From contig CANHON010000002.1 in assembly GCA_947462115.1 (NCBI GenBank), positions 1-40,603 on the forward strand: a DNA stretch of 40,603 nt, given 5' to 3'. The notes below the pieces were generated by a model. It was not told the DNA's origin. It saw nothing but the letters and a program-made list of their open reading frames with translations, and ran no database searches. The translations under genes were made by a program, and so were the position numbers. The stretch is from Deltaproteobacteria bacterium (GTDB taxonomy: Bacteria > Myxococcota_A > UBA796 > UBA2385). Positions 163 through 37,677 of this stretch are shown here, in pieces (position 1 is the stretch's first letter; each line of letters opens with the position of its first letter).

Positions 163-876
163 ATGTCCCGCCCGCGCTCGGTCGCCCCCTCGCTGGAGCT
201 CATCGCCTTTACCCTCGCCTGCGCTGTTTTGACCGCAGCAGGGTCCGCCGAGGCCGCACCGCCCGCCGCGCTGCTCCGGGCCGGCGTGGACGTGCGCGGC
301 GCCATGCTCAGCGAGGGCGACGACCAGCGGCGCGGGGCCGACCCCACCGAGCTCTGGGCCGCCTTCGGGGCGCCGGTCGGGGGCGCCCTGTTCATCGGCG
401 CGCCGGTGAACGTGCAGGGAGAAGGCCGACATTACCTCGGATTGGACCTGGGCCTGCGGAGCGGCGCCCTGCGCGGCCGGGCCGACAACCTGCCAGGCGG
501 CCCCTTCACCTACCAGCAGCGCACGCTGAGCCCGGCGCTGGGCTTCGTGAACCGCAGCAAAAACAGCGAGCTGTCCGCGCGGATCGGCCCGAGCTGGACC
601 CGCCAGACCACCACTGCCTCCGAGGGCGGGCCGACGGCGACGGGCGACGCCTTCGGCCTCTCTTGGGGGGCCGAGCTCGCGTGGTCAGCGCCCCACAAGG
701 GCCCGCAGCGCGTCAACCTCGGCGTGTTCTTCGAGTCCGACCTCATGGCCGTCGGCGGCAGCAGACAGGGAGACCTGCTGCCCTATGACGACGGCGACGC
801 CGCCTTCTACGCGGCGCTGGGCCTCCGGCTCAGCACCTCACGGGCCCTGCGGCCCCGCGGCGCGCGCGCCGACTGA
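163..876 (+). CDS. secreted hypothetical protein, possible outer-membrane beta-barrel
   Basis: ATG at 163 is preceded by GGAGG (154-158). N-terminal signal peptide LELIAFTLACAVLTAAGSAEA. The remainder is Gly/Ser/aromatic-rich with short alternating strand-like segments. Overlapping ORFs 39..395(-) and 510..746(-) look like antisense artefacts. Confidence 0.6.
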   Translation: MSRPRSVAPSLELIAFTLACAVLTAAGSAEAAPPAALLRAGVDVRGAMLSEGDDQRRGADPTELWAAFGAPVGGALFIGAPVNVQGEGRHYLGLDLGLRSGALRGRADNLPGGPFTYQQRTLSPALGFVNRSKNSELSARIGPSWTRQTTTASEGGPTATGDAFGLSWGAELAWSAPHKGPQRVNLGVFFESDLMAVGGSRQGDLLPYDDGDAAFYAALGLRLSTSRALRPRGARAD

Positions 877-889
877 AGGGGAGGGGCGC

Positions 890-3814
890 TCAAGCCACGG
901 GGATCACCGAGAGCAGGGCGCCCGCGTGCAGGTCGATGACCAGCACCCGGCTGTGGGCGTCGCCGACGAGCAGGCGATCGGGGCGGTCGCCGGGGCGCAC
1001 GAAGCGGGGCGCGCCCGCGATCCGCAGCCAGCCGGTGGGGCGGTGACCGGCGAGGGGCCCGGCGGGGCGCAGCACCAGCGCGGCGAGTCCGTCGTCGTCC
1101 TTCTCGGCGTGGGCGCGCAGGCCGGCGACGAGGCCAAGCTGCTCACGCCAGCGCGCCGGGCCCAAGGGGAAGGGCTCGGGGATCCGCTCGACGCCCTGCA
1201 GGAACAGGCGCTCGCCCGCCTCGCCGAGCTCCCAGAGGGCCTCGCCCTCGACCGACACCACGGGGCCGCGGCCCAGGCGCGGCTCGGGCAGCAGGGGTCG
1301 GCGCTCGCGCAGGGCCGGGCCGGCGCCGCGCTCCCAGCGCCAGAGCTCACGCTCGCCGCTGGCCGTGCGCACGACGGCGCGCAGAACATCGCCCTGCAGG
1401 TCAATCGCGAGGATGGCACCGGCGCCCCTGCCCTCGGGAAGGGACCCGCTGCGCCACAGGCGCCGCAGCCCCTGGGCCTCGGGCTGGTAGCTGCAGAGCT
1501 CGGCGCCCTCGACCACGAAGAGCTGCCCGTCCGGGCTGCTCAGGGCCAGGGGTGCCCGGCGGTCGCCCACCGGCAGGGCGCCGAGCGAGACCGGCGGCGC
1601 GCCCTCGCGGCAGCGCATGACCCGCAGGAGGCCCGGCCCGCCGGCGCTCAGGGCCAGCCAACCCCCGGGCGCCGGCAGCAGGCGCTCGGCGGGGGCCGAG
1701 ATCAAGGCCGGGGGCGCGCCGGGCCGCAGCAGGCGCTGGCCCAAGCCGCCGAGCGCCACCACCAGACCGCCGTGCGGCAGGCTCAAGGCGTCGAGCGGGC
1801 GCACGGCCTCGGGGCCGCCGAGCGGCAGGGGGATGAGGCGCGGGCCCGACCAGTCGAGCGGCCGACCCGGGGCGCTCGGCAGGGGGCCCAAGGCCGGGAG
1901 ATCGGCGTCCAAGGCTCGAAAACTGCGGCTGGGCTCGACGGTGGCCTGGCGGAGGCCGGCGAGCAGGGCCCGGGCGTCGGGCTCGGCCTCGGCGGCCGGG
2001 AGCAGGGCGCGGATCAGCGGCTCGGCCACCGCCGGGCGCAGGGGCGGCAGGCGCAGGGCGGCCTCGGCGAGGCGCAGGCGGTGCAGGGGGCCGCGGTCGA
2101 GGGCGGCGCGCAACGCGGGATCGACGCCGGGCGCGGCGCTCGGGTCGAGGGCCAAGGAGGCCACCACGCACCAAGCGGCCTCGAGATCGGCGTCGGCGCG
2201 GATCGGGGCGAGCAGGCCGCGCAGGGTCTCGGCCACCCGCGGCTCGGCCCGCAGCGGCCAGAGGGTCTGGGTGGCCCCCATCACATCATCGGCTTCGAGC
2301 TGTGCTTCGGCCCAGCGGGCCCGAAGCAGGGCCGCCACCTGCGGGTGCGCGCCCTCCAAGGCCAGGATCGCCGCGCCCAGCGCGCCCCGGCCGAGGCCGA
2401 GCTCCAGGGCCCGCCGCGGCTGGCCCGCCTGCACCCACAGGCGCAGCAGCTCGGGCGTGGGCTGGCCGGTGGCCTCGGCGAAGCGCGCGGCCTCGTCGAG
2501 CAGGCCCTTCTCTTCGAGGTAGACCACCGCCCCGCGCCCGTCGCGCAGCAGCTCGGCGAGCACCCAGGCGGCGCGCGCGTGGTCACCCTCGGCGTCGAGG
2601 CGCCGGTGGGCGTCGAGGTAGAAGCGGCGGAGCATGCCCACCACCTCGGCGCTGACCGCCGCCGCCGCGCCCCGCTGGCCGTGGGTGAGCGTGCCGAGCT
2701 CGCGCTGGCCAAAGCGACCGAAGAACCAGCCTTCGGGCGGGGCGCTGCCGTCACCGCCCAAGGGGATGGCGTGGCGCAGGGCCTCGAGCAGCTCCGAGGT
2801 GCTGAGCGCCCGATCGAAGCGCTCGACCAGGCCCCGCAGGTACTCGGATTGGGCGGACGCCAACCACCGCATCGCCCGCCACAGGGGCAGGCGCGCCGAG
2901 AGGCTGGCCCAGAGGCGCGACCAGGCCGACGGGCCCGCGGGCGGCCGCGGTGGCGGCGCGGGCGGGGCCCCCCTGCTGAGCGCCCCCTTCAAGGCCCGAA
3001 CAGCCCGGCCGACGGTGGACTGGAGCAGCCACCCCACCGCGCCCACCGCCGCGCCGAGGGCCGCGCCGAGGCCAGCCCCGAGCGCCCGCAGCCACCGCGC
3101 GCCCCGGGTCGCGCCCAAGGCCGGCCCCGGGGCGGGCGCCGTCGGCGCGGGCTCGGGCCCGCGGATCGCCTTCAGAATGGCCTGCAGTACGCCACCCCCG
3201 ACCTGGGAGAGCCAGTCGCCGAGGCGGCTGCGGGCCGCCGCCGCGCCCACCGGCGGCGCCGCCGCCTGGGCCACCGCCGCCGCCCCCTCGGCGCTCCACA
3301 GGCCGAGCTCGCGCTGAAGGCCGCCCATCGCCGCCGGGGGCGCCGCTTCGGGCACCGGCGGGGGCGCGCCCAAGGGCCGGGCGCTGCGGCGCGCAAGGGC
3401 CCCGGTGTCGATGAGGGCGCCGGGGGCCAGGGCCGCGGCCGGCCGGGGCAGGCAGCGCCGCGCGCCGCCGAGCGCCAGCTCCAGCTCACCGGGGCCGGGG
3501 CTGCCGGCGGGCCAGAGGGTCGAGGCGCCCACCCCAGCCGGCAGCAGCCGGTCGAGCGCGCCCTGGGGCCCCAAGCGACGGGGCACGGAAAACTCGAGCA
3601 GCAGGCCGATCGGGCCGCCCCCGGGCTCGGTCAAGGCGCAGAGCCGGTCGCCGGGGGCCCAGGCGGCGAGCAGCTGGCCCAGCGCCTGCTGCTCCTCCAA
3701 AATAGCGTCGGGCGAGCCATCTTGAGGGCCACGCCTCTGGATGCCGCCGGCCGGCAGGTAGACGAGGCCCATGCAGCGCAGGCTGCCGCGCGCGCGGAGG
3801 GGCGGGCCGCTCAT
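890..3814 (-). CDS. 974-aa protein, last gene of the MoxR cassette: N-terminal domain, Pro-rich linkers flanking a Gly-zipper hydrophobic helix, alpha-helical middle, beta-propeller-like C-terminus
   Basis: The track ORF 890..4600 has an Arg/Gly/Pro junk N-terminus that overlaps the upstream gene. The in-frame ATG at 3814 (MSGPPLRARGSLRCMGLVYLP...) overlaps the upstream stop as ATGA (3811-3814). The C-terminal third shows repeated strand-turn blades (DGQLFVVEGAELCSY, AILAIDLQGDVLRAVV, SRVLVIDLHAGALL). I recognised no enzymatic motif. Confidence 0.75.
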   Translation of the reverse strand: MSGPPLRARGSLRCMGLVYLPAGGIQRRGPQDGSPDAILEEQQALGQLLAAWAPGDRLCALTEPGGGPIGLLLEFSVPRRLGPQGALDRLLPAGVGASTLWPAGSPGPGELELALGGARRCLPRPAAALAPGALIDTGALARRSARPLGAPPPVPEAAPPAAMGGLQRELGLWSAEGAAAVAQAAAPPVGAAAARSRLGDWLSQVGGGVLQAILKAIRGPEPAPTAPAPGPALGATRGARWLRALGAGLGAALGAAVGAVGWLLQSTVGRAVRALKGALSRGAPPAPPPRPPAGPSAWSRLWASLSARLPLWRAMRWLASAQSEYLRGLVERFDRALSTSELLEALRHAIPLGGDGSAPPEGWFFGRFGQRELGTLTHGQRGAAAAVSAEVVGMLRRFYLDAHRRLDAEGDHARAAWVLAELLRDGRGAVVYLEEKGLLDEAARFAEATGQPTPELLRLWVQAGQPRRALELGLGRGALGAAILALEGAHPQVAALLRARWAEAQLEADDVMGATQTLWPLRAEPRVAETLRGLLAPIRADADLEAAWCVVASLALDPSAAPGVDPALRAALDRGPLHRLRLAEAALRLPPLRPAVAEPLIRALLPAAEAEPDARALLAGLRQATVEPSRSFRALDADLPALGPLPSAPGRPLDWSGPRLIPLPLGGPEAVRPLDALSLPHGGLVVALGGLGQRLLRPGAPPALISAPAERLLPAPGGWLALSAGGPGLLRVMRCREGAPPVSLGALPVGDRRAPLALSSPDGQLFVVEGAELCSYQPEAQGLRRLWRSGSLPEGRGAGAILAIDLQGDVLRAVVRTASGERELWRWERGAGPALRERRPLLPEPRLGRGPVVSVEGEALWELGEAGERLFLQGVERIPEPFPLGPARWREQLGLVAGLRAHAEKDDDGLAALVLRPAGPLAGHRPTGWLRIAGAPRFVRPGDRPDRLLVGDAHSRVLVIDLHAGALLSVIPVA

Positions 3815-5616
3815 TGGGGCCGCGCCGTGGCGATGGCCGAGGCGCTCGGCAGGTGCCAGACCACCAGCACCCCGGCGGCGTCCAGCCAGGCCACCGCGTC
3901 GCCCCGCGGCGAGGCGGCCGCCCAGGCGACGGGGTGGGCCGACACCGGCAAGGTGCGGGGCGCGCCCCAGCCCCGGAGCTCCAAGGCCCCGCCGGTGCTG
4001 ACCAGCAAGCAGGGGGCTTCGTTCTGCGGCACCAGCACGCCAAAGAGCTCGATGTCGGCCGGCACCGCGGGGCCTCCGTGAAACTGCCAGTCGAGGCTGC
4101 CGCCCCGCGACGAGCGCAGCAGGTGGTGGCGCGGCCGCCGGCCAGCGCAGCTCACCCACAAGCGCAGCGCGCGCTCCAGGCCTTGACCGCCGCCGGCCAC
4201 GGTCATCGACCCGATCTCCGGCCCGAGCAGCTCGGCTTGGCGCTCCCGCTGCCGCAGGCTGTAGGCCGCCCGGCCTTCGCCCACCGCCACCGGCAGGCCG
4301 CCGCTGCCCGGGATCAGCGGGGCCAGCTCGCCCGCCTCGTTGATCAGCAGGGCTTTTTGCGCGCCGTCGGGCAGGCGCAGGTGCGCCGGCAGGCCCGCCC
4401 GCACCATCGGGCCCTCGGCGGCGCAGCGCAGGGGGGCGCCCGGCTGGGGCAGCAGCGCCACACCCGCCGCGCCGTCCAGGCCGGTGAGCAGGCCCGGGCG
4501 CGGACCCTGCCCGGCCGCGGCCTCGGGCAGCACGAGCGTGAGGGGCGGCACGGGGCGGGCGGCGCGCACCTCGGCCCAACGCTGACCCACCCCGGCCCAC
4601 AGCTCGCCTTGGGCGTCGAGGCTGAGGGTGGCCAAGCGCTGCCCCACCCAGCCGAGCCCGAGCACCTGGCCGTGGACCTCGCGCAGGTGCGGGCGCCGGC
4701 TGGCCTCGGCGTCGGCCTCGACCGGCAGGGCCACCGCCCGACCGTAGGCGGTCTCGCCGAGCAGGCGCGCGCCCGAGGGCGAGAAGAAGAAGCCCGGCCG
4801 CAGCGACATGCCCCAGGTGCGGGCGGCGATCGCCTTGGGGCTCGCGCTGCGCGGCGGAGACACCGGCCGAAGGGTGGCCGTGCCGCCGAAGCCCGCCGCC
4901 CAGACCATGCCCGGCCGATCGTCGAGACCGATGTGCAGCACGTCGCCTTCGGCCAGAAAGCTCAGGTGCAGCCCGCCCGGCGGCGCGCCCAAGGGCCGAC
5001 CCGGCGGGCCCAGGGTCACGAGGCGCTCCTCGGGCTCGAGCGCGGCCGAGGCCCGCTGCCAGTCGTCCACCTCGGCGGGCTGCGCGCGGCGGGCGGCCCG
5101 TAGGCGATCCAGCCAGCCCTCGCCGAGGCCCTCCATCAGGCCCCCGCCGTCGGCCGACAGCCCACCCCAGCGCAGGGGCAGGCCCTCGGAGGCCGCCCAG
5201 GCCGCCAAGGCCAATAGGGCCGCAGCCTGACCTTGGCGCGGCAGGCCGAGCTGGTTCGGGCCGCCGTCGAGCAGGGCCCGCAGGGCGGTCGGCGGGCGGG
5301 GCGCCTCGGTGTGCAGGGCCAGAAACATCAGCTCGGCGTCGGCCGCCCGCTGCAAAAAGGCCTCAGGGACGACGTCGAGCAGGGCCCACTCGCTGTGCAT
5401 CAGCCGGTCGAAGGGCCCGCGGCGGTCGATGCCAGCCAGGCCATCCGGCGCGCCCGGCCCCCGGCGCGGCGCGGGCCCCTGCAGGCGCAGGCGGGCGAGG
5501 AGGGCCCAGGCCAGCGGGCCGAGCTCCTCTGCCACCGCCTCGGGCTGGGCGGCGAGCAGCGACCGCAGGGCCACCTCGGGCCGGGGCAGCGCCGGCTTCG
5601 GGCGGGTCGGGCTCAT
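3811..5616 (-). CDS. 601-aa protein of the MoxR cassette: N-terminal alpha/beta region (possible degenerate vWA-like, no clear MIDAS) plus C-terminal beta-propeller-like repeats
   Basis: The ATG at 5616 overlaps the upstream stop (ATGA, 5613-5616), and the stop overlaps the next start (3811-3814). The C-terminal half has WD/PQQ-like blade endings (ELWAGVGQRW, AVAWLDAAGVLVVWHL). The N-terminal segment LRALLDGGPNQ...AALLALAAWAASEG resembles a Rossmannoid strand-helix, but DxSxS is absent. Confidence 0.75.
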   Translation of the reverse strand: MSPTRPKPALPRPEVALRSLLAAQPEAVAEELGPLAWALLARLRLQGPAPRRGPGAPDGLAGIDRRGPFDRLMHSEWALLDVVPEAFLQRAADAELMFLALHTEAPRPPTALRALLDGGPNQLGLPRQGQAAALLALAAWAASEGLPLRWGGLSADGGGLMEGLGEGWLDRLRAARRAQPAEVDDWQRASAALEPEERLVTLGPPGRPLGAPPGGLHLSFLAEGDVLHIGLDDRPGMVWAAGFGGTATLRPVSPPRSASPKAIAARTWGMSLRPGFFFSPSGARLLGETAYGRAVALPVEADAEASRRPHLREVHGQVLGLGWVGQRLATLSLDAQGELWAGVGQRWAEVRAARPVPPLTLVLPEAAAGQGPRPGLLTGLDGAAGVALLPQPGAPLRCAAEGPMVRAGLPAHLRLPDGAQKALLINEAGELAPLIPGSGGLPVAVGEGRAAYSLRQRERQAELLGPEIGSMTVAGGGQGLERALRLWVSCAGRRPRHHLLRSSRGGSLDWQFHGGPAVPADIELFGVLVPQNEAPCLLVSTGGALELRGWGAPRTLPVSAHPVAWAAASPRGDAVAWLDAAGVLVVWHLPSASAIATARPQ

Positions 5617-10240: not shown

Positions 10241-11077
10241 ATGAACCTGGATGACCTCCGCCTGTTCGCCGCGGTGGCCGAGCTCTGCAGCTTCTCGGCC
10301 GCGGCCGAGCGCACCGGGGTGCCGCGCTCCACGCTCACCCGCGTGGTGCAGCGCCTCGAGGTCGACGCCGGGGCGCCTCTTTTGCACCGGAGCACCCGCC
10401 GGGTGAGCCCCACCGCCGCCGGCGCCGCCCTGCTCGCCGAGGTGCAGGCGCCCCTGGCCGCGCTGCGCGAAGCGGCCGTGTCCATGCGGGAGCGCTCGGG
10501 CGAGCCGGCGGGCCTGCTGCGCTTCACCACCACCACCGACATCGCCACGACGCTGCTGGCGCCGGTGCTCACGGCGCTCACGGCGCGCCACCCGCGGCTG
10601 CGGGTCGAGGCGCTCCTCACCCTGCGGCCCGTCGACTTGATCGGCGAGCAGGTCGATGTGGCGCTGCGGGTCTACACCGCGCCGCCCACCGACGCCGCGC
10701 TCGTGGGCCGCCGCCTGCGGGACCTCAACTTCGGCTGGTATGCCGCGCCCGACTACCTCCGCCGCCGCAGGGCGCCGGCCTCGATCGAGGAGCTCGCCGA
10801 GCACACCCTCGTATCAACGCCCGCTTTAGACCGCGGGGCGCGCCTCGTCGTCGACGATCCGGGCTTCGTGGGCGCGCTGGTGCGGGCGGGCGCCGGGGTC
10901 GGCCTGCTCCCCTGCGAGGCCTGCGCGGCCGAGGAGCGGAGCGGCGCGCTGGTGCGGTTGATGCCCGAGCGCTCGGTGCTGCGGGGCCAGCTCTGGCTGG
11001 TGTACCCAACGGGCGGCCTGTCCCCCAAGGTGGCGGCTTTTCGGGAGCTGGTGGTGGAGCAGCTCTGCGCCGACTGA
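10241..11077 (+). CDS. LysR-family transcriptional regulator
   Basis: N-terminal LysR HTH (MNLDDLRLFAAVAELCSFSAAAERTGVPRSTLTRVVQRLE) followed by a substrate-binding domain. Divergent from the NmrA-like gene, which is the classic LysR arrangement. An alternative start lies at 10229. Confidence 0.9.
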   Translation: MNLDDLRLFAAVAELCSFSAAAERTGVPRSTLTRVVQRLEVDAGAPLLHRSTRRVSPTAAGAALLAEVQAPLAALREAAVSMRERSGEPAGLLRFTTTTDIATTLLAPVLTALTARHPRLRVEALLTLRPVDLIGEQVDVALRVYTAPPTDAALVGRRLRDLNFGWYAAPDYLRRRRAPASIEELAEHTLVSTPALDRGARLVVDDPGFVGALVRAGAGVGLLPCEACAAEERSGALVRLMPERSVLRGQLWLVYPTGGLSPKVAAFRELVVEQLCAD

Positions 11078-11141
11078 GCCGGCGCACCGCGGCCCGAGCC
11101 CTGGGATAGCTGGGGCGGCCCCTCGCCCGCCGGAGCCGCCC

Positions 11142-12077
11142 GTGATCCTTCAGATCGTCGCAGTCATCGCTGGCGTCGCCATGCTCGTCTTCGGCGGCGA
11201 CCTGCTGGTGCGCGGCGCGGTCGGCATCGCCGCCCGGCTGCGCATGCCGCCCTCGCTGATCGGCCTGACCATCGTGGCCATGGGCACCTCGATGCCCGAG
11301 CTGGTGGTGAGCCTCGGGGCCGCGGTCCAGGGTCAGCCGGACCTCAGCATCGGAAACGTCGTCGGCTCCAACATCTACAACGTGGGCCTCATCCTCGGCC
11401 TCACCGCGCTCATCCGCCGGCTGACCTGCGACCTCGCCGAGGTGCGGCACGACGGCGCGTGGATGATCGGCGCCTCGGCGCTGTTCACCGGCCTCGCCTG
11501 GGACGGTCAGCTCGGCCGCCTCGATGGGCTGCTGATGCTCGGGGCGATGGCGGCCTTCCTCGGGTCGGCCATCCGGCGCAGCTACCGCGCCAAAACGGCC
11601 GCGGCCGAGCCCGCGCCCGACGCCCCGGCCTTGATGGGCTGGCCCTCCGCGGTGGGCTTCGTGATCGGCGGCCTGCTGCTGCTGATGGGCGGCGCGCAGG
11701 CGCTGATCTTCGGGGCGACGGCCCTGGCCACGGCCCTCGGCGTGCCCGAGATGATCATCGGGCTCACGGTGGTCGCCATCGGCACCTCGCTGCCGGAGCT
11801 GTTCGCCAGCGTGATGGCGGCGGTGCGCGGCGAGTCCGGCATCGCCATCAGCAACATCGTCGGCAGCAACGTCTTCAACATCTTGTTCATCCTGGGCACC
11901 ACCAGCGCCATCAGCCCGATCCGAGTCAACCCGCAGGTCATGGGCAGCGATGTCTGGTGGATGCTCGGCTTCGCGGTCCTGCTGGTGCTCTGGGCCGGGC
12001 GCGCCCTGCCGCTCGGCCGGCCCTTCGCCGCGGTGATGTTGGCCTTGGCGGCGGCTTACACGGCGACCTTGGTCTGA
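11142..12077 (+). CDS. CaCA-family cation/calcium antiporter (YrbG-like)
   Basis: Two alpha-repeats are present (GTSMPELVVS...GNVVGSNIYNV and GTSLPELFAS...SNIVGSNVFNI), with about 10 hydrophobic helices. The GTG start at 11142 has GGAG 6 nt upstream. Confidence 0.85.
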   Translation: MILQIVAVIAGVAMLVFGGDLLVRGAVGIAARLRMPPSLIGLTIVAMGTSMPELVVSLGAAVQGQPDLSIGNVVGSNIYNVGLILGLTALIRRLTCDLAEVRHDGAWMIGASALFTGLAWDGQLGRLDGLLMLGAMAAFLGSAIRRSYRAKTAAAEPAPDAPALMGWPSAVGFVIGGLLLLMGGAQALIFGATALATALGVPEMIIGLTVVAIGTSLPELFASVMAAVRGESGIAISNIVGSNVFNILFILGTTSAISPIRVNPQVMGSDVWWMLGFAVLLVLWAGRALPLGRPFAAVMLALAAAYTATLV

Positions 12078-30569: not shown

Positions 30570-31154
30570 CTAAGTGCACCACCGGTTGACGCGGGCGGTC
30601 GCCTCGTTCAGGACCTTGAACTCGAACCGACGCTTCGGGAGCGAGACCGCCAAGCGCTGCACCCGAGGGTTCAGCCGATTGTAGAGCTGCTCGCAGGCTT
30701 CGGGATCGCGGAACCCCGAGACCACGAGCACAAGGCAGAGCTCAACGGCGTTCATCGGCGCAGCGTCGACGGTGAGCTTGGCGGGCAGCGGCACCCCCGG
30801 CCACCACCCGTGGGCAGCGCCGAGCCACAGGTGAAGGCTATGGAGGAGCTTGTCGCAGATCTCTTGGTCGAACCTCTCGACCGCCTCTGCTTTTGCGCGG
30901 CGGTCGTCAGGGCTGTCGCCCGGGCGCGGGCCCCACGGCGCCGATGACTTTGCTTCGAGGAACACGATCCGGGGATCCTTTCCCCGGAAGTGCCTGTACA
31001 CGACCGCCTCGACGGCCTTCGGCTGGCTGTTCCCAGCGAGCCCAACGTAGAGCGGGCTCGCCTCTAGCTCCCAGACCCGGTCGGGGTGAAAGGGCCCGAA
31101 CCGAAGACCAGACTCGAGGAGATACACTTGGCCGTCGTTCGGGTCGACTGGCAT
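30570..31154 (-). CDS. 194-aa hypothetical protein coupled to the ATPase; possible PD-(D/E)xK nuclease-like
   Basis: The ATG at 31154 shares one base with the ATPase stop (TGATG, 31152-31156). The segment HPDRVWELE...AVEAVVY...RIVFLEAKSS could be a D/E...ExK motif. No HNH, Toprim or other motif recognised. GC is lower than in the flanks. Confidence 0.6.
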   Translation of the reverse strand: MPVDPNDGQVYLLESGLRFGPFHPDRVWELEASPLYVGLAGNSQPKAVEAVVYRHFRGKDPRIVFLEAKSSAPWGPRPGDSPDDRRAKAEAVERFDQEICDKLLHSLHLWLGAAHGWWPGVPLPAKLTVDAAPMNAVELCLVLVVSGFRDPEACEQLYNRLNPRVQRLAVSLPKRRFEFKVLNEATARVNRWCT

Positions 31155-32179
31155 CACTCCTCCCAGCCGCCAATCTGCCGATTGTACAGGTCGATCGAGG
31201 CTTGAATGATCGGGTTCTCGGGGAGCCCCCCGCGCAGATCGCCCTGTGCGGTGCTGCCATTGTCGCCGAAGCTCAGCCAACCGACCTCGGCGCCCGTACC
31301 CTGCTCGCCAGCGAGCACCGCGAGCGCCTTGAGCACGAAGTAGCTGTGCGTGGCGAGGAAGATCTGCATCCCTGCCCCGGCCAACTTCAACAAGATGTCC
31401 ATCAGAAGCAAGATGGCATCCGGGTGCAGCGCGCTCTCCGGCTCGTCGAAGAGGAGCACGGAGCTGGTGGAGAGGTAGCGGTTACCGAGGAGCTGATCGA
31501 GGATGCCAATCTTCCGCACGCCCTCGGAGGTCACGCCGAGGGGCACCTTGCTGTTTCCCTGCTTGAAGATCCAGGTCGGCGGGGGCCCCGGCACCATCTC
31601 GACCCGCCCGCCGAAGTGCGCCTTGAGGCGGTCGCGCGCACCAGCGAACTCAGTGAAGTTGTTGCCCCGCGTGGTCGGCGCGAGCAGCGCCCGCGCGAGG
31701 TCGACGTAGGTGTCGTCAAAGCCGAAGGCGGCCAGCTCATCGCGCCCGCGCAAGATCGCCGCGTGCATCGACAGCACCTCCTTCGCCGGGAAGAAGAGCG
31801 TGTTGGCCTCGCGGGCGACGAGCCCGCGGCCCTTCACCTCCACCTGCCGGGTGGCGCCCTTCTCGATCTCGATGCGCAAGGGGCCCTCGGTGAGCGCGAG
31901 CTCAAGGCGCGCCTTGTCCGGGCCGCCCCGCCGCACGAGCTTTCCGAAGTCGCCGCACTGGTAGGTCCAGTGCAGCTTCTCGGCGGCCAGCTCCGTGAGC
32001 GTGCGGCGCTCCTCACCGCGCTGCTGCGCCTCGACCACCCGCTGACCGACGTAGAGCGCCTTGAGCAGCACCGTCTTGCCCGCGCCGTTCGTACCCACCA
32101 CCACGTTCAGCCCTGGGCGGGGCTGCCAATCCAGCGTGTGGATGGGCCCGAAGTCGTGAAGCTGTGCACGCGTGATCAT
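31154..32179 (-). CDS. ABC/SMC-type (AAA_21/AAA_15-like) ATPase, 341 aa
   Basis: Walker A GTNGAGKT, signature-like VTSEGVRK, Walker B VLLFDEPESALHP and H-loop FLATHS. I prefer the ATG at 32179 (GGAG 6 nt upstream); the alternative at 32185 gives MPM... The track N-terminal extension is Arg/Gly junk. Confidence 0.8.
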   Translation of the reverse strand: MITRAQLHDFGPIHTLDWQPRPGLNVVVGTNGAGKTVLLKALYVGQRVVEAQQRGEERRTLTELAAEKLHWTYQCGDFGKLVRRGGPDKARLELALTEGPLRIEIEKGATRQVEVKGRGLVAREANTLFFPAKEVLSMHAAILRGRDELAAFGFDDTYVDLARALLAPTTRGNNFTEFAGARDRLKAHFGGRVEMVPGPPPTWIFKQGNSKVPLGVTSEGVRKIGILDQLLGNRYLSTSSVLLFDEPESALHPDAILLLMDILLKLAGAGMQIFLATHSYFVLKALAVLAGEQGTGAEVGWLSFGDNGSTAQGDLRGGLPENPIIQASIDLYNRQIGGWEE

Positions 32180-32405
32180 GGGCATCTCCGGCCGGGCGCC
32201 TATCCGGAGGGCGCCCCGGGCGCCGCAGAACCAAAACGCGGCTTGAGCGCGAGCCGGTCCCACCCGCGCCCCCGCGCCAGGCCGACCGGACGGCGGGCCG
32301 CAGGCCCGGTGGCGCAAGCCACCAAGGCGCGCAGCGCCGCGCCGGGAGGGGGGCCGCCGCCGAAGGCGGGGCGCCCGAGGCTCCCAGCGCGAGAGGCCCC
32401 GCCGC

Positions 32406-34175
32406 TCAGAGCAGGCGGATGTCGAAGTCCATCATCGGGGCCTTGCCGACGCTGGCGCGCTTGGCGTAGAGAGCGGCCTCGGGCAGCACCATCTCGAAGA
32501 AGTAGCGGGCGGTCTGGAGCTTGCCGCGCTTGCGGTCGCTGTCGGGCTGGTCGGCCAAGAAGAGCAGCTGGCGCAGCCAGACGTAGCCCAGCGTGTTGAG
32601 CGCGAACTGGTTGAGGTAGTTGCTGGCGGCGGCGCCGACCTCCTCGGCGTCCTCCATCGCCCGGCCCATCAGGCCCATCGTGGTGTTGGTGAGGCGGCCG
32701 GCCTCCTTGCCCAGGGCCTCGGCGAAGGGCGCGAGCTCGGGGTTTTGGGCGGCCTTCTCGATGGTGGCCGTGACCTCGGCCGCGAAGCTCTGGAGCAGGC
32801 GGCCGCCGCCGAGGGGCAGCTTGCGGCCCACGAGGTCGAGGGCCTGGATGTGGTTGGTCCCCTCGTAGATCATGGCGATGCGCACGTCGCGCAGGTACTG
32901 CTCGACCGGCCAGTCGGTGGTGAAGCCCGAGCCGCCCATGACCTGCATGGCCTCGCTGACGTTGAGGAAGCCCCGCTCGCTGCCGAACGACTTGATGATG
33001 GGCGTCATCAGGGCGACGAGGTCTTCGGCCTCGGCGCGCACCGCGGCGTCGGGGTGGTGGAGCATGCGGTCGTAGGCCACGGCGATCATGGCGACGAGGC
33101 CGCGCAGGGGCTCGTTGGTGGACTTGATGTTCAACAACATGCGGCGCACGTCGGGGTGCACGAGGATGTTGTCGGCGGCCTGGCCGGCCTCGTTGCGGGC
33201 CGGGTTGAGCGAGCGGCTCTGGCGGCGGTCCTGGGCGAAGGCGAGGGCGGCCTGGTAGGCGGCGTCGGCCAGGGCCACGCCCTCGATGCCCACGTTGAGG
33301 CGCGCGGCGTTCATCATCACGAACATCGAGCGCATGCCCTTGTGGGCCTCGCCGAGCATCCAGCCCTGGGCGCCGTCGAGGTTGATGACGCAGGTGGGGC
33401 TGGCGTGGATGCCCATCTTGTGCTCGAGGCCGCCGCAGCTCACGTGGTTAAAGCTGCCGTCTTCGAGGAATTTGGGCACCAAGAAGGCGCTGATGCCCTT
33501 GATGCCCGGCGGCGCGTCGGGGAGGCGGGCGAGCACGAGGTGGATGATGTTGTCGGTGAGGTCGTGCTCGCCGAAGGTGATCCAGATCTTGGTGCCGCTG
33601 ACCGTGTAGCTGCCGTCGGCGCGGGGCTCGGCGCGGGTGCTGATGAGGCCGAGATCGGTGCCGCACTGGGGCTCGGTGAGGCACATCGTGCCCGACCACT
33701 CGCCGGTGATGAGCTTCTCCAAGAAGCGGTGCTTCTGCTCGTCGGTGCCGTGGGCCTCCAGCGCGTCAATGAGGCCGGTGGTGAGGCCGGGGCACATCGA
33801 GAATGACTTGTTGCACGCGATCAAGATCTCGGAGCCCAGCACCGCGAGGGTGAAGGGGGCGCCACCGCCGCCGTGGGCCGCGCTGTGGGCCATGCCGTTG
33901 AAGCCGGCCTCCACCCAGCCTTTGTAGGCCTCTTTGAAGCCGTCGGCGGTGGTGACGGCGCCGGTGGCCCCGTCGAACTTGAGGCCCTGCTGGTCGGCCT
34001 TTTGGTTGAGGGGGTACAGCACGTTGGCGCAGTACTCGCTGTAGCCCTCGAGCAAGGACATCGAGGTGTCGAGGTCGAAGTCGGCGAAGCCGGCGAGCTG
34101 GCTGATCAGCGCAGGGTAGCCGAAGACTTCGAGGTTGAACCGGATGTCGTCGAGGGGCGGCGTGTACTTGAGCAC
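32406..34175 (-). CDS. long-form acyl-CoA dehydrogenase (FadE-like, about 589 aa)
   Basis: ACAD blocks MCLTEPQCGTDLG, GTKIWITFGEHD, KGISAFLVPK and RIAMIYEGTNHIQALD, with a C-terminal extension. The GTG start at 34175 has GGAG 5 nt upstream (MLKYTPPLDD...). The track extension to 34439 is junk. Confidence 0.85.
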   Translation of the reverse strand: MLKYTPPLDDIRFNLEVFGYPALISQLAGFADFDLDTSMSLLEGYSEYCANVLYPLNQKADQQGLKFDGATGAVTTADGFKEAYKGWVEAGFNGMAHSAAHGGGGAPFTLAVLGSEILIACNKSFSMCPGLTTGLIDALEAHGTDEQKHRFLEKLITGEWSGTMCLTEPQCGTDLGLISTRAEPRADGSYTVSGTKIWITFGEHDLTDNIIHLVLARLPDAPPGIKGISAFLVPKFLEDGSFNHVSCGGLEHKMGIHASPTCVINLDGAQGWMLGEAHKGMRSMFVMMNAARLNVGIEGVALADAAYQAALAFAQDRRQSRSLNPARNEAGQAADNILVHPDVRRMLLNIKSTNEPLRGLVAMIAVAYDRMLHHPDAAVRAEAEDLVALMTPIIKSFGSERGFLNVSEAMQVMGGSGFTTDWPVEQYLRDVRIAMIYEGTNHIQALDLVGRKLPLGGGRLLQSFAAEVTATIEKAAQNPELAPFAEALGKEAGRLTNTTMGLMGRAMEDAEEVGAAASNYLNQFALNTLGYVWLRQLLFLADQPDSDRKRGKLQTARYFFEMVLPEAALYAKRASVGKAPMMDFDIRLL

Positions 34176-34272
34176 GGGGACTCCATCTGCGCGGGCGGCG
34201 GCGGGTCGGGGAGGGGCGCCGCCTATCGGATCGGGGGCGGCCGCGCCGTGCCAAGCTGCGCCCGAGGTGACC

Positions 34273-35568
34273 ATGAACGCCCCCGCGCTCCTGCTGCTGC
34301 TCACGCCCGGCCTCGGCTGGGCCAACGGCCAGACCACCCACATCTGGATCACCCGCGAGGCCCGCGCCTTGGTGCCGGCGGGTCCGCTGCAGGACATCGT
34401 GCAGGACGAGGCCAACCAGCCGATGTTGGTGCACGGCACGATGTTCCCAGACGGGGGCTACGCGGTGGGCCACCCCTACGGCGAGGCCGCCCACTGGGAG
34501 CCGTTTCAGACGGCGTACCTGGCGTGGATCCGCGCCACCTACGGCCCGCCCTACGAGGACCCGGAGGCCCGCCAGCACGTCGCTTTCCTCATGGGCTTGG
34601 CCTCGCACGGCATGGCCGACCAGACCTTCGACGCGCACTACCTCAACCGCAGCCAAAACTACGACGGGGCGCTGGGCTGGGCGGCCGGCGACAGCATGGA
34701 CGAGGCCACCGACTTTGAGTGGGGTTGGCTGACCGGCCCCCAAGACGTGCCCGACCGCTGGGTGCCCGGCGGGCCCTTCGTCGAGCTCTACGCAGAGCAG
34801 GGCATTGTCGTGGACGACGCCACGATGAACGAGGGCCAGGGCCTGCTGGAGCTGGCGGTGCGCCTCGTCGGCTTAGGTAGCCAGTCGGAGATCAGCCTAG
34901 AGCGCTACCGCGAGGGCTTCCCCTGGGCGACCAGCCACCTCCAAGACCCCGCCGTGCCCGGCATTCCGAGCTACGAGGCGGAGATCGTGGCCGGCTATTG
35001 GCAAGAAGTGTGGGACCGCCTGCACGAGATGAGCCCCGCCGACGCCATCCTCGGCACTGTGCCCTCCGAGGGCGGCTGGGTGCCAGGCCGCGCGCCCGAC
35101 GACCCCAACGCCCGCCTGAGCGTGCACTTCAAGCGGGGCCTCGTGGCCGAAGACATCGTCGCCGACGCGTTCTTGGTGACAGGCCCCGAAGGCCCGCTGG
35201 CGGTCGAGCCCTGGCTCTACTACGGCAACGACAGCCACATCGTGCACCTCGTGCCGGTCGCGCCCTGGCCCGAAGACGCCCTCCTCACGGTCACCGTCAA
35301 GGCCGGCCTGCCCGACCGCTTCGGTGGGGCCTTGGCCCAAGACTACGTGTTCACCGTCACCACCACCGAGCCGCCGCCCGAGGACACCGACTGCCGCTTC
35401 TGCGCGGATGAAGGCGACGACATCGCCGAGCCCTCCGGCCAAGACGAGCCCAAAAGCCGCTGCGGGGGCTGCAGCGCAGAGGGCGAGGGGCGGGCCGCCG
35501 GCCTCGGCCTGCTGGGCCTGGGCTTCGGCCTCAGCCTGCTCCGCGGGCGCCGACCGACCGCGCGCTGA
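34273..35568 (+). CDS. secreted zinc-dependent phospholipase C-like protein with Ig-like domain and MYXO-CTERM-like tail
   Basis: GAGGTGA lies upstream of the ATG at 34273. A signal peptide ending ...TPGLG sits immediately before WANGQTTH, so Trp would be mature residue 1. His/Asp ligand-like blocks are FPDGGY, AAHWEP and ASHGMADQTFDAHY. The tail CGGCSAEGEGRAAGLGLLGLGFGLSLLRGRRP lies at 35461-35565. Confidence 0.65.
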   Translation: MNAPALLLLLTPGLGWANGQTTHIWITREARALVPAGPLQDIVQDEANQPMLVHGTMFPDGGYAVGHPYGEAAHWEPFQTAYLAWIRATYGPPYEDPEARQHVAFLMGLASHGMADQTFDAHYLNRSQNYDGALGWAAGDSMDEATDFEWGWLTGPQDVPDRWVPGGPFVELYAEQGIVVDDATMNEGQGLLELAVRLVGLGSQSEISLERYREGFPWATSHLQDPAVPGIPSYEAEIVAGYWQEVWDRLHEMSPADAILGTVPSEGGWVPGRAPDDPNARLSVHFKRGLVAEDIVADAFLVTGPEGPLAVEPWLYYGNDSHIVHLVPVAPWPEDALLTVTVKAGLPDRFGGALAQDYVFTVTTTEPPPEDTDCRFCADEGDDIAEPSGQDEPKSRCGGCSAEGEGRAAGLGLLGLGFGLSLLRGRRPTAR

Positions 35569-35662
35569 GGGCCCTGGGCCTGTCACCCCTTCGCCCCTTG
35601 CCCGTCACGTTGTAGGCTGAGCGCCGGGCTGGCGCCCCTCCCCGCGCCGCCTGGGGAGCCGC

Positions 35663-36775
35663 ATGGGCCGCCAATACGCCGCGCTGATCACCACCCTCGC
35701 CTTGCTCTCTGCCTGCAGCGGCGCCGCAGACAAGGGCGCGGGGCGCGAGGGGGGCGGCCCCGGCGACAGCGGCGGCGCCGACACCGGCCCGATCGACCCT
35801 GGGCCCAGCCCCTACACCCTCGATGACCTGCTGCGGCTCAACCACGTGCAGGCCAAGGGCACGCACAACAGCTACCACCTGCGCAGCGAGCGGATCGTGG
35901 ACGAGAGCCACGACTACGACCACGCGCCCCTCGACGTGCAGCTCGAGGCGCAGGGCGTGCGCCAGTTCGAGCTCGACCTGCACCTGCACGAGACGCTCGG
36001 CTGGCAGGTCTTTCACCTGCCCGGCGGCATCGACGAGGGCACCACCTGCCTGCAGCTGCGCGACTGCCTCGGCTTGATGAAGGCTTGGTCCGACCAGAAC
36101 CCCTACCACCTGCCGATCGTCGTGTGGTTCGAGCCCAAGGACGAGGACCTCGACTGGGCCATCCCCGAGCTGCTGGAGTACATCGGGCGCGAGGCCGAGA
36201 TCGAAGACGCTGTGCTGGAGGTCATCCCCGAGCAGCGCATCCTCCGCCCCGACGAGGTGCGCGGCGCCCACCCCGACCTGCCCACCGCCCTGGCCGCGGA
36301 CGGCTGGCCGACCCTCGGGGCGCTGCGCGGGCGCTTCATCTTCGCGATGCTCGACAGCGGGCCGCACCGGGACGCCTACCTGGAGGGCCACCCGGCGCTG
36401 GAGGGCCGGCTGATGTTCGCGACCGCCGACTCGGTGACCGCGCCCTACGCCGCGATGCTCAAGATCAACGACGCGGTGGGCTCGGGTGACGTTGTGGCCG
36501 AGGCCCTGGCCGCCGGCATGGTCGTGACCTCAAACGTCGAGTCGGCGGGCCAGACCGACGCAGAGAACGCCGCCAAGCGCGAGGGCTCATTGGCGTCGGG
36601 CGCGCACTTCTTGAGCAGCGACTACCCGGCGCCGGTCGCGGGCCGCGAGGGCCACCTGGAGATCCCGGGCGGCTCGCCTGCCGGCTGCAACCCCGTCACG
36701 GCCCCGGCCGAGTGCGCGCCCGGGCAGGTCGAAGATCTCGAAGCGGCGCGGGCCCTGCGCGAGGCTGAAGAGTGA
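35663..36775 (+). CDS. lipoprotein, PI-PLC-like phosphodiesterase (Ca-dependent phosphoinositide phospholipase C-like)
   Basis: Lipobox LLSAC. X-box-like catalytic block VQAKGTHNSYHL. TIM-barrel-like strand/helix alternation. C-terminal SGAHFLSSDYP. Confidence 0.65.
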   Translation: MGRQYAALITTLALLSACSGAADKGAGREGGGPGDSGGADTGPIDPGPSPYTLDDLLRLNHVQAKGTHNSYHLRSERIVDESHDYDHAPLDVQLEAQGVRQFELDLHLHETLGWQVFHLPGGIDEGTTCLQLRDCLGLMKAWSDQNPYHLPIVVWFEPKDEDLDWAIPELLEYIGREAEIEDAVLEVIPEQRILRPDEVRGAHPDLPTALAADGWPTLGALRGRFIFAMLDSGPHRDAYLEGHPALEGRLMFATADSVTAPYAAMLKINDAVGSGDVVAEALAAGMVVTSNVESAGQTDAENAAKREGSLASGAHFLSSDYPAPVAGREGHLEIPGGSPAGCNPVTAPAECAPGQVEDLEAARALREAEE

Positions 36776-37677
36776 GCGGGCGGGTCTTCAGCCTCGGTCT
36801 TTGGCTGGGGCTCTGCACCGGCTGCGGGCCGGGCGCCAAGCCCGCCGGAAGCGAAAGCGGCCCCGGCCAAGACAGCGCCGCCGAGGCCCCTCTGACCCGC
36901 GCTTGCAACGGCCACCCGGCGCTGTGCGACCGGCCCCTGGACGCCGTGCGCTTCCCCGGCACCCACAACAGCATGTCGGCGGCCGACGAGGGCTGGCTGG
37001 GCCCCAACCAAGGCCACGGCATCGAGCGACAGCTCGAAGATGGCGTGCGGGCGATGATGTTCGACACCTACGAGGTCGATGGCGAGCTGCTGCTGTGCCA
37101 CGGCTACTGCAGCCTCGGCTCGCGCCCCCTGATCGACGCGCTGCAGGGCGTAGACGCCTTCTTGGCCGCCCACCCCGACGAGCTGCTGCTGCTCATCCTC
37201 CAGGACGGCACCAGCGTCGAGGCCACCACCGCCGCCCTCGACGCCGCCGGGCTCGGCGCCCGCACCTACGACGCCACCCCGCAGCTTCAGGGCGCGCCCT
37301 GGCCCACCCTGGGCGAGCTCACCGCGGACGGCCACCAGCTCATCGTCTCGGCCGAGTCCCAAGGCCCGCCGCCGGCTTGGTACCACCACGCTTGGGCGCT
37401 GTTCTCCGATACGCCCTATTCATTCCGCTCCATCGAGGAGCTGAGCTGTGCGGCCAACCGCGGCGAGGCGCAGAGCCCGCTGTTCTTGGTCAACCACTGG
37501 CTCGGGCCGCTGCCCAGCGAAGACGCCGCCGCCACCGTCAACCTCGCCGAGGTGCTGCGCGCGCGGGTCGAGGCCTGCGAGGCCGAGCGCGGGAAGGTCG
37601 CGAACTTCGTGGCGGTCGATCACTACCAAGTCGGCGACCTGTTTGGCGTCGTGGCCGCCCTCAACGGGCTGGACTGA
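36772..37677 (+). CDS. lipoprotein, PI-PLC X-domain-containing (PLC-like phosphodiesterase)
   Basis: The GTG start overlaps the upstream stop (GTGA, 36772-36775). Lipobox LCTGC. Catalytic block RFPGTHNSMS, followed by GIERQLEDGVRAMMFD. Confidence 0.65.
   Translation: MSGRVFSLGLWLGLCTGCGPGAKPAGSESGPGQDSAAEAPLTRACNGHPALCDRPLDAVRFPGTHNSMSAADEGWLGPNQGHGIERQLEDGVRAMMFDTYEVDGELLLCHGYCSLGSRPLIDALQGVDAFLAAHPDELLLLILQDGTSVEATTAALDAAGLGARTYDATPQLQGAPWPTLGELTADGHQLIVSAESQGPPPAWYHHAWALFSDTPYSFRSIEELSCAANRGEAQSPLFLVNHWLGPLPSEDAAATVNLAEVLRARVEACEAERGKVANFVAVDHYQVGDLFGVVAALNGLD

Follow-up and report, generated by a model that had tools for sequence, protein, structure and literature searches.

What is a small, overlapping pair of genes, one for an ABC-type ATPase and one for a protein of 194 amino acids (aa), doing among the metabolic genes of a very GC-rich bacterium? 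The question is raised by positions 30570 to 32179 of contig CANHON010000002.1 (assembly GCA_947462115.1), from a genome named Deltaproteobacteria bacterium and placed by GTDB in the Myxococcota_A. The stretch analyzed, positions 1 to 40,603 of that contig, is called the window below, and all coordinates without another locus name refer to it. A sequence-only reading had described the two genes as a horizontally acquired ATPase-nuclease defense pair of unassigned type. The analysis presented here gives them a type. We consider it probable, at roughly 80%, that the pair represents the HEC-02 anti-phage system, present as a stand-alone copy in a genome that is high in GC and Myxococcota-like.

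Both proteins were matched over nearly their full lengths by HEC-02 profiles in PADLOC-DB v2. The ATPase matched the HEC-02A profile PDLC04214 with an E value of 2.8e-109 (363.5 bits, residues 1 to 336 aligned with positions 1 to 333 of the 338 in the profile) and a second HEC-02A profile, PDLC04213, at 2.1e-56. The partner matched the HEC-02B profile PDLC04221 at 1.8e-22 (residues 13 to 190 on profile positions 6 to 166 of 171), together with three more HEC-02B models and no other PADLOC family. Thus, the pair reads as an ATPase with a nuclease-like defense protein, as had been suggested, and the term "unassigned type" gives way to a system with a published description and a plaque-assay test. 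A further profile, PDLC04146, carries the HEC-02B label in the database and matched the ATPase instead of the partner (E value of 7.1e-40, residues 1 to 293), apparently a labeling inconsistency or a swapped-order variant in PADLOC-DB.

HEC-02, for Hma-embedded candidate 02, was discovered through its frequent nesting inside Hma systems and was described as an ABC ATPase with a NERD-like PD-(D/E)xK protein (Payne et al., bioRxiv 10.1101/2024.01.29.577857). When one representative was expressed in Escherichia coli, the plaquing efficiency of two or more coliphages fell by orders of magnitude, an effect that required both genes (10.1101/2024.01.29.577857). Our literature search found no later paper on the mechanism. 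Besides the profile coverage, the pair in the window shares with HEC-02 the overlapping ATPase-then-partner gene order, a compact ABC ATPase and a (D/E)xK motif in the partner. It differs in belonging to a divergent high-GC subclade, whose ATPase is 45 to 48% and partner 25 to 30% identical to the main clade, in having a partner about 15 to 20 residues longer, with the extra residues around positions 73 to 95, and in standing alone rather than being embedded in Hma, bacteriophage exclusion (BREX) or restriction-modification (R-M) loci.

The pair consists of two intact, overlapping open reading frames (ORFs) on the minus strand, read here as the sequence-only reading had claimed. The HEC-02A-type ABC/SMC-head ATPase gene (31154 to 32179, 341 aa) was delimited and classified from its ORF, start codon, PADLOC and Pfam matches, AlphaFold2 model and Foldseek results. 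The gene for the HEC-02B-type partner, a candidate PD-(D/E)xK (NERD-like) effector, runs from 30570 to 31154 (194 aa; PADLOC, family alignment and AlphaFold2 model). The stop codon of the first and the start codon of the second share one base in TGATG at 31152 to 31156 on the same strand, and an overlap of this kind is kept at every homologous locus examined, with one base in close relatives and four in distant ones. The ATPase and partner genes are intact and translationally coupled. A ribosome-binding site, GGAG (32186 to 32189, minus strand), lies 6 nucleotides (nt) 5' of the ATG at 32179, and CGGAG-N6-ATG is common to the locus of an 88%-identical ATPase (L087), with which it is the only upstream element conserved. 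Two longer ATPase reading frames, from a TTG at 32317 and from an ATG at 32185, two codons upstream, were dropped because this element is shared with the 88%-identical relative; homologues begin at the conserved ribosome-binding site and ATG. A longer partner ORF from a TTG at 31280 was also discarded, since homologues begin at the overlap, and a plus-strand ORF of 568 aa (30893 to 32599) was taken as an antisense artifact of high GC content.

The motifs reported for the ATPase are all present in the order given, with GTNGAGKT at residues 29 to 36, SEGVRK at 218 to 223, LLFDEPESALHP at 242 to 253 and ATHS at 276 to 279, and their key residues do not vary among 25 homologues. These are G29, N31, G34, K35 and T36 in the Walker A motif (32072 to 32095, minus strand, as for the other three), E219, G220 and K223 in the ABC signature-like motif (31511 to 31528), D245, E246, P247 and E248 in the Walker B motif with its catalytic glutamate (LLFDEPE, residues 242 to 248, 31436 to 31456; H252 and P253 follow) and H278 and S279 in the H-loop (31343 to 31354). 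In Pfam, the protein matched AAA_21 (8e-22) and AAA_15 (1e-11). An AlphaFold2 model built from the 25 homologues (pLDDT [predicted local distance difference test] of 83.6, predicted template modeling score [pTM] of 0.87) was a compact head without a long coiled coil, and its Foldseek matches were retron/Septu PtuA, the SMC head, Rad50 and RecN (E values of 8e-14 to 1e-10, template modeling [TM] scores of 0.5 to 0.58). The protein thus folds as an ABC/SMC head, and all of its catalytic motifs are conserved. Its relatives are widespread, with 673 at an E value of ≤1e-10 in many phyla at about 45 to 48% identity, a range that includes Magnetococcales, Desulfovibrio, Actinomycetaceae, cyanobacteria and Planctomycetota.

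The partner is a very different kind of query, as it diverges much faster than the ATPase. It had no Pfam or NCBIfam match, and a search of PDB sequences returned nothing with either the single sequence or a profile of 56 family members; no precomputed Pfam domain was found in 117 relatives. While a word-index search gave only three homologues, an exhaustive profile search gave 130 representative clusters at an E value of ≤1e-3, with members mostly of 165 to 185 aa. Two high-ranking matches of the profile, P0125 and P0134, were false positives caused by repeats, one being a retroelement polyprotein and the other a repeat protein. A tblastn search of the partner against plasmids gave no match because the family diverges too fast for this method.

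The segments that the sequence-only reading had picked out in the partner (HPD, AVEAVVY and RIVFLEAKSS) were all found, and its possible (D/E)xK motif proved to be a conserved one. In the alignment of the 56 members, E14, S15, E31, E67, A68, V181 and A187 are invariant, and F19, G20, E49, K69, P76, K102, L143 and N183 are conserved in at least 90%. The aspartate of HPD (D25) is variable, and the conserved acidic residues are E14, E31, E49 and E67. The AlphaFold2 model of the partner (pLDDT of 94.9, pTM of 0.91) has a short helix (residues 34 to 38) immediately after E31, then strands 50 to 54 and 62 to 69, which are paired as a β-hairpin, and then a long helix (82 to 114). E49 (31008 to 31010, minus strand), the first of the acidic residues in the putative PD-(D/E)xK site, lies directly before the first of these strands, and E67-A68-K69 (30948 to 30956, minus strand) lies in the second. 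A glutamate before or at a strand followed by ExK on the next strand is the usual catalytic placement in PD-(D/E)xK enzymes, and NERD proteins have the pattern E...D/E...ExK. The partner resembles NERD (PF08378, a member of the PD-(D/E)xK superfamily) in the order of a glutamate in a helix region, a glutamate at a strand start and E-x-K on the next strand, and HEC-02B was called NERD-like in the preprint. From the modeled arrangement of these residues, the partner likely has a nuclease fold of the PD-(D/E)xK type. The EAK sequence is replaced by EAR in the partner of a Magnetococcales locus (L088, positions 11011 to 11553), the sole distant homologue located outside a defense locus.

Among five loci with distant homologues, four lie inside or beside BREX or R-M systems: in two (L089 and L090, ATPase identity of about 45%), the pair sits between PglX and PglZ of BREX; in Desulfovibrio inopinatus (L006, about 45%), it sits between HsdS and HsdR of a type I R-M system; and in L005 (about 45%), it adjoins HsdR of type I R-M, and GmrSD and a transposase of IS66 are close by. 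The fifth is the Magnetococcales locus (about 47%), which contains sugar and methyltransferase genes and no defense genes. Another copy (L091, 43%) was found between a recombinase and IS26 on the 29-kb plasmid pNR4028_IMP1 of Comamonas thiooxydans (NZ_AP025194.1, 18072 to 19630), where the two genes are annotated merely as "ATP-binding protein" and "hypothetical protein." Homologues of the pair are thus typically found within BREX or type I R-M loci or on a plasmid, and the co-occurrence with defense loci that had been proposed as a check was indeed observed. Closer relatives are found next to LysR, FG-GAP and TauE genes (L002 to L004, 65%) or, at 88% identity, with downstream genes different from those in the window (L087). 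All of these loci encode partners that are recognized by the profile of the partner family (E values of 5e-39 to 2e-54), with values of 1e-51 to 2e-54 for those of L089, L090, L006, L005 and L091. The gene order, ATPase and then small partner on one strand, is the same in L002, L005, L006 and L087 to L091. Both BREX loci also hold further embedded genes (L089, 6647 to 9849; L090, 4643 to 6411), namely, those for a 942-aa or 437-aa AAA_15/SMC_N ATPase and a small partner, as well as GmrSD fragments; a single BREX system here contains several nested cassettes.

Neighboring genes differ at every locus examined, even at 88% and 65% ATPase identity, and the DNA similarity to L087 and L002 stops at the ribosome-binding site upstream and at the stop codon downstream. 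We also looked for empty sites, using the acyl-CoA dehydrogenase next to the ATPase gene as the query and one genome per species. Neither the pair nor the pirin gene found on its other side occurred within 10 kb at any of 80 genome loci encoding a related dehydrogenase, the best of which were from Myxococcota metagenome-assembled genomes (MAGs; 57 to 65% identity). The pair is therefore not part of a core synteny with pirin and the dehydrogenase. Taken together, the ATPase identity of about 45% across phyla, the differing flanks, the similarity that ends at the ribosome-binding site and stop codon, and the absence from all 80 dehydrogenase loci uphold the horizontal acquisition that the sequence-only reading had proposed. 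The pair behaves like a self-contained cassette of two genes, one that moves between genomes, and most likely it was acquired horizontally as a two-gene unit and is partly adapted to the composition of its host. The closest dehydrogenases (65% identity) came from two MAG contigs (L007 and L009) titled "uncultured Enterobacteriaceae bacterium"; the next closest were Myxococcota or Deltaproteobacteria, and the bin labels of these two contigs are probably wrong.

The same data speak to whether the pair could be a housekeeping one, that is, a RecF/RecN/SMC-like ATPase with an accessory nuclease that serves DNA repair or recombination in the core genome and merely resembles a defense system. Such a role would be in keeping with its ordinary metabolic neighbors and the lack of defense or mobility genes nearby, with the codon usage of the ATPase, which is close to that of the host, and with the weak RecF, RecN and SMC_N matches of the ATPase in Pfam and NCBIfam, as well as its fold match to RecN and Rad50 heads. 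However, the RecF/RecN matches are restricted to the Walker A end and lie well short of the curated cutoffs (30.6 bits versus 172), whereas HEC-02A aligns over the full length with 363 bits. Moreover, the pair is absent from the 80 related dehydrogenase loci and patchy across phyla, and four of the five distant homologues are inside or beside BREX or R-M systems. We regard a housekeeping function as very unlikely.

Base composition had been the original argument for foreign origin. The pair has a GC content of 67.3%, compared to 74.0% for the whole window and an average of 73.8% (standard deviation of 2.6) for the 23 other genes, against which the ATPase and partner genes have z scores of -2.4 and -2.8, respectively. 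When windows of the same size were slid along the whole stretch, only 0.18% were as low or lower, and the minimum overlapped the pair itself. The lowest GC content at this size in the window is thus that of the pair, as implied by the description of a lower-GC module, but the contrast is smaller than claimed: windows of 200 nt across the pair gave 64.5 to 72% GC rather than about 57 to 65%, and the neighboring acyl-CoA dehydrogenase gene has about 69% GC and not about 75%. The partner departs more clearly from its surroundings in GC content at third codon positions (GC3), with 0.836 versus 0.927 ± 0.024 (z score of -3.8), and in its codon score (z score of -4.6).

Several results weigh against the HEC-02 reading or one of its parts. 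The compositional signal of the ATPase is weak, with both GC3 (0.904, z score of -1.0) and codon score (z score of -1.5) close to normal; only the partner is clearly atypical, so that composition alone is weak evidence of foreign origin. We found no close relative with an empty site, the nearest dehydrogenases being 57 to 65% identical and pirin not syntenic; because of this, the insertion event itself is what we infer. None of the ten neighboring proteins had a PADLOC match at an E value of ≤1e-5, which places the pair outside any defense island in the window. The representative tested in plaque assays belongs to the main clade, to which the partner described here is only about 25 to 30% identical. 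As for the nuclease, none of the 56 partner family members matched Pfam NERD (PF08378), even at an E value of ≤1, the profile search of PDB sequences with the partner family gave nothing, and Foldseek found no match of the partner model at an E value of ≤1e-3 in PDB or BFVD (best E values of 0.1 and 0.024, TM scores of about 0.2). Known PD-(D/E)xK proteins are present only among the weak Foldseek matches (E values of ≥0.02, TM scores of about 0.2), in the form of BsmI, Can2, Mus81-Eme1, VRR-NUC, herpesvirus UL24, a Holliday-junction resolvase and phage endonucleases; a further weak match is a chain of the Hachiman complex. Given the lack of a fold, NERD or PDB match, the nuclease fold of the partner rests on its motif, on the placement of the strands and on the structural comparison in the preprint.

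These fold searches, neither of which gave a significant nuclease match for the partner (PDB and BFVD), would also fit a toxin-antitoxin-like or abortive-infection module, in which a non-nuclease toxin is combined with an AAA_21 ATPase as the regulator (AbiEii-type, type IV toxin-antitoxin). The best Pfam match of the ATPase is AAA_21, described as a "putative AbiEii toxin, Type IV TA system" domain, and the fast divergence of the partner relative to the ATPase points the same way. The conserved ExK motif and the HEC-02A and HEC-02B matches favor the ATPase-nuclease pair, and we consider the toxin-antitoxin explanation quite unlikely.

If the pair is HEC-02, it still has much in common with better-known ATPase-nuclease systems, although it fits none of the named types PARIS, Septu, Gabija, OLD or AbiL, as the sequence-only reading had noted. 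The matches of the ATPase to the AriA, GajA, PtuA, Old, AbiLi and MAD3 profiles are confined to the Walker A or Walker B regions. PARIS (AriA ABC ATPase and AriB TOPRIM nuclease) is similar in having an ABC ATPase sensor and a separately encoded nuclease effector, but AriA profiles cover only a C-terminal part of the ATPase (approximately residues 203 to 283, or 211 to 283 for the match with an E value of 7e-22), and the partner has no AriB, TOPRIM or DUF4435 match. Septu and retron PtuAB (PtuA ABC ATPase and PtuB HNH nuclease) have the same layout of an ATPase and a small nuclease, and among solved structures, PtuA chains come closest to the ATPase (E values of 8e-14 to 1e-10, TM scores of about 0.5). 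However, PtuA has 430 to 550 aa with extra insertions, the sequence matches are partial (E values of about 1e-9), and the partner has no HNH match; the earlier remark that it carries neither an HNH nor a Toprim signature agrees with the absence of any HNH, TOPRIM or DUF4435 profile match. Gabija (GajA ATPase-TOPRIM and GajB helicase) and OLD/AbiL share the AAA_15/AAA_21-class ABC ATPase core, but the pair in the window has no TOPRIM domain and no UvrD-like helicase partner, and the matches cover only the Walker A/B regions at E values of about 1e-11 to 1e-12.

The structurally solved systems PARIS, Septu/retron PtuAB and Gabija suggest by analogy that the ATPase may form a complex with the small nuclease, keep it inactive and sense infection. 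A phage cue, together with ATP binding or hydrolysis, would then free or activate the partner, which could cut nucleic acid through a metal-binding site formed by E49, E67 and K69 and so stop phage replication. PARIS offers the best mechanistic analogy, with its ATPase scaffold that frees the effector upon a phage trigger.

The spacer between the dehydrogenase and ATPase genes is 226 nt long, with a GC content of about 83%. The inverted repeat GGGCGCC-N9-GGCGCCC (arms of 7 nt, 32194 to 32216), which had been listed as a feature of the module, is present there. Nevertheless, at least one perfect 7-nt inverted repeat occurred in 83% of Markov-1 simulations of the spacer (mean of 3.2), and L087 lacks the repeat upstream of its 88%-identical ATPase. 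We therefore treat it as a chance occurrence, probably not part of the system, and reject it as an operator. A consensus scan for terminator-like sites found three in the region versus 1.0 expected, among them a hairpin followed by a T-run, CGTTTTGGTT (32239 to 32256, minus strand), between the dehydrogenase stop codon (32406) and the ATPase start. Given this hairpin, a dedicated ATPase promoter would have to fit into only about 60 nt. No sigma-70-like promoter was found by scanning upstream of the ATPase, a scan that covers neither non-sigma-70 nor very GC-rich promoters. An independent 24.6-kb assembly of the same organism (L001, European Nucleotide Archive contig MEHR18-2_SAMN08331102_METAG-scaffold_8667) ends 135 nt upstream of the ATPase start; this end corresponds to about position 32314 of the window, inside the spacer, where GC is about 82%. 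Either difficulties of assembly at extreme GC or variation between strains at the boundary of the cassette could account for this.

A decaying or silent remnant of a defense cassette, inactive in its present host, might look much like this, being isolated from any partner system, with no sigma-70-like promoter detected and a terminator-like hairpin just about 60 nt upstream of the ATPase start. Yet neither ORF is disrupted, no catalytic residue has been lost, the gene overlap and ribosome-binding site are preserved, and the relatives at 98%, 88%, 80% and 65% identity are also full length. In addition, the promoter scan is blind to the non-sigma-70 and very GC-rich classes named above. That the pair is such a remnant appears highly improbable.

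Within the window, the pair is followed downstream by genes for pirin, AIM24, an M10 peptidase, a β-helix protein, an esterase and EamA, while upstream there are the acyl-CoA dehydrogenase, three phospholipase-C-like genes, an unknown gene and a FecR-like gene. No mobility or defense gene is found among the five genes on each side, in agreement with the earlier statement that no mobility gene is adjacent, and there is no tRNA gene in the window. The three phospholipase-C-like genes are consecutive (34270 to 37677, plus strand) and adjoin the dehydrogenase on its upstream side; they matched Zn-dependent PLC (1.2e-5, weak), Ca-dependent PI-PLC-C1 (3.4e-56) and PI-PLC-X (7.7e-5). Near the start of the window (785 to 4600), ORFs of more than 1,000 aa occur on both strands (785 to 4081, plus; 890 to 4600, minus) at up to 84% GC, and a simple gene-picking procedure based on GC3 placed no gene between 876 and 3811.

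The high-GC subclade to which the pair belongs has ATPases 65 to 98% identical to the one described here and partners with about 15 to 20 extra residues, and it is always found alone among housekeeping genes. This subclade might have left the R-M/BREX niche and may respond to another trigger or serve a non-phage host function, such as DNA-damage or plasmid control in Myxococcota, which we consider unlikely. As a stand-alone HEC-02 copy, divergent and from a very GC-rich Myxococcota-like genome, the pair would widen both the host range and the sequence space of the system, and standard defense-finding software would label it HEC-02. As the partner family has neither a Pfam model nor a solved relative, its invariant residues and confident predicted structure are useful, and E14, S15, E31, E49, E67, K69 and K102 offer targets for mutagenesis of the putative effector.

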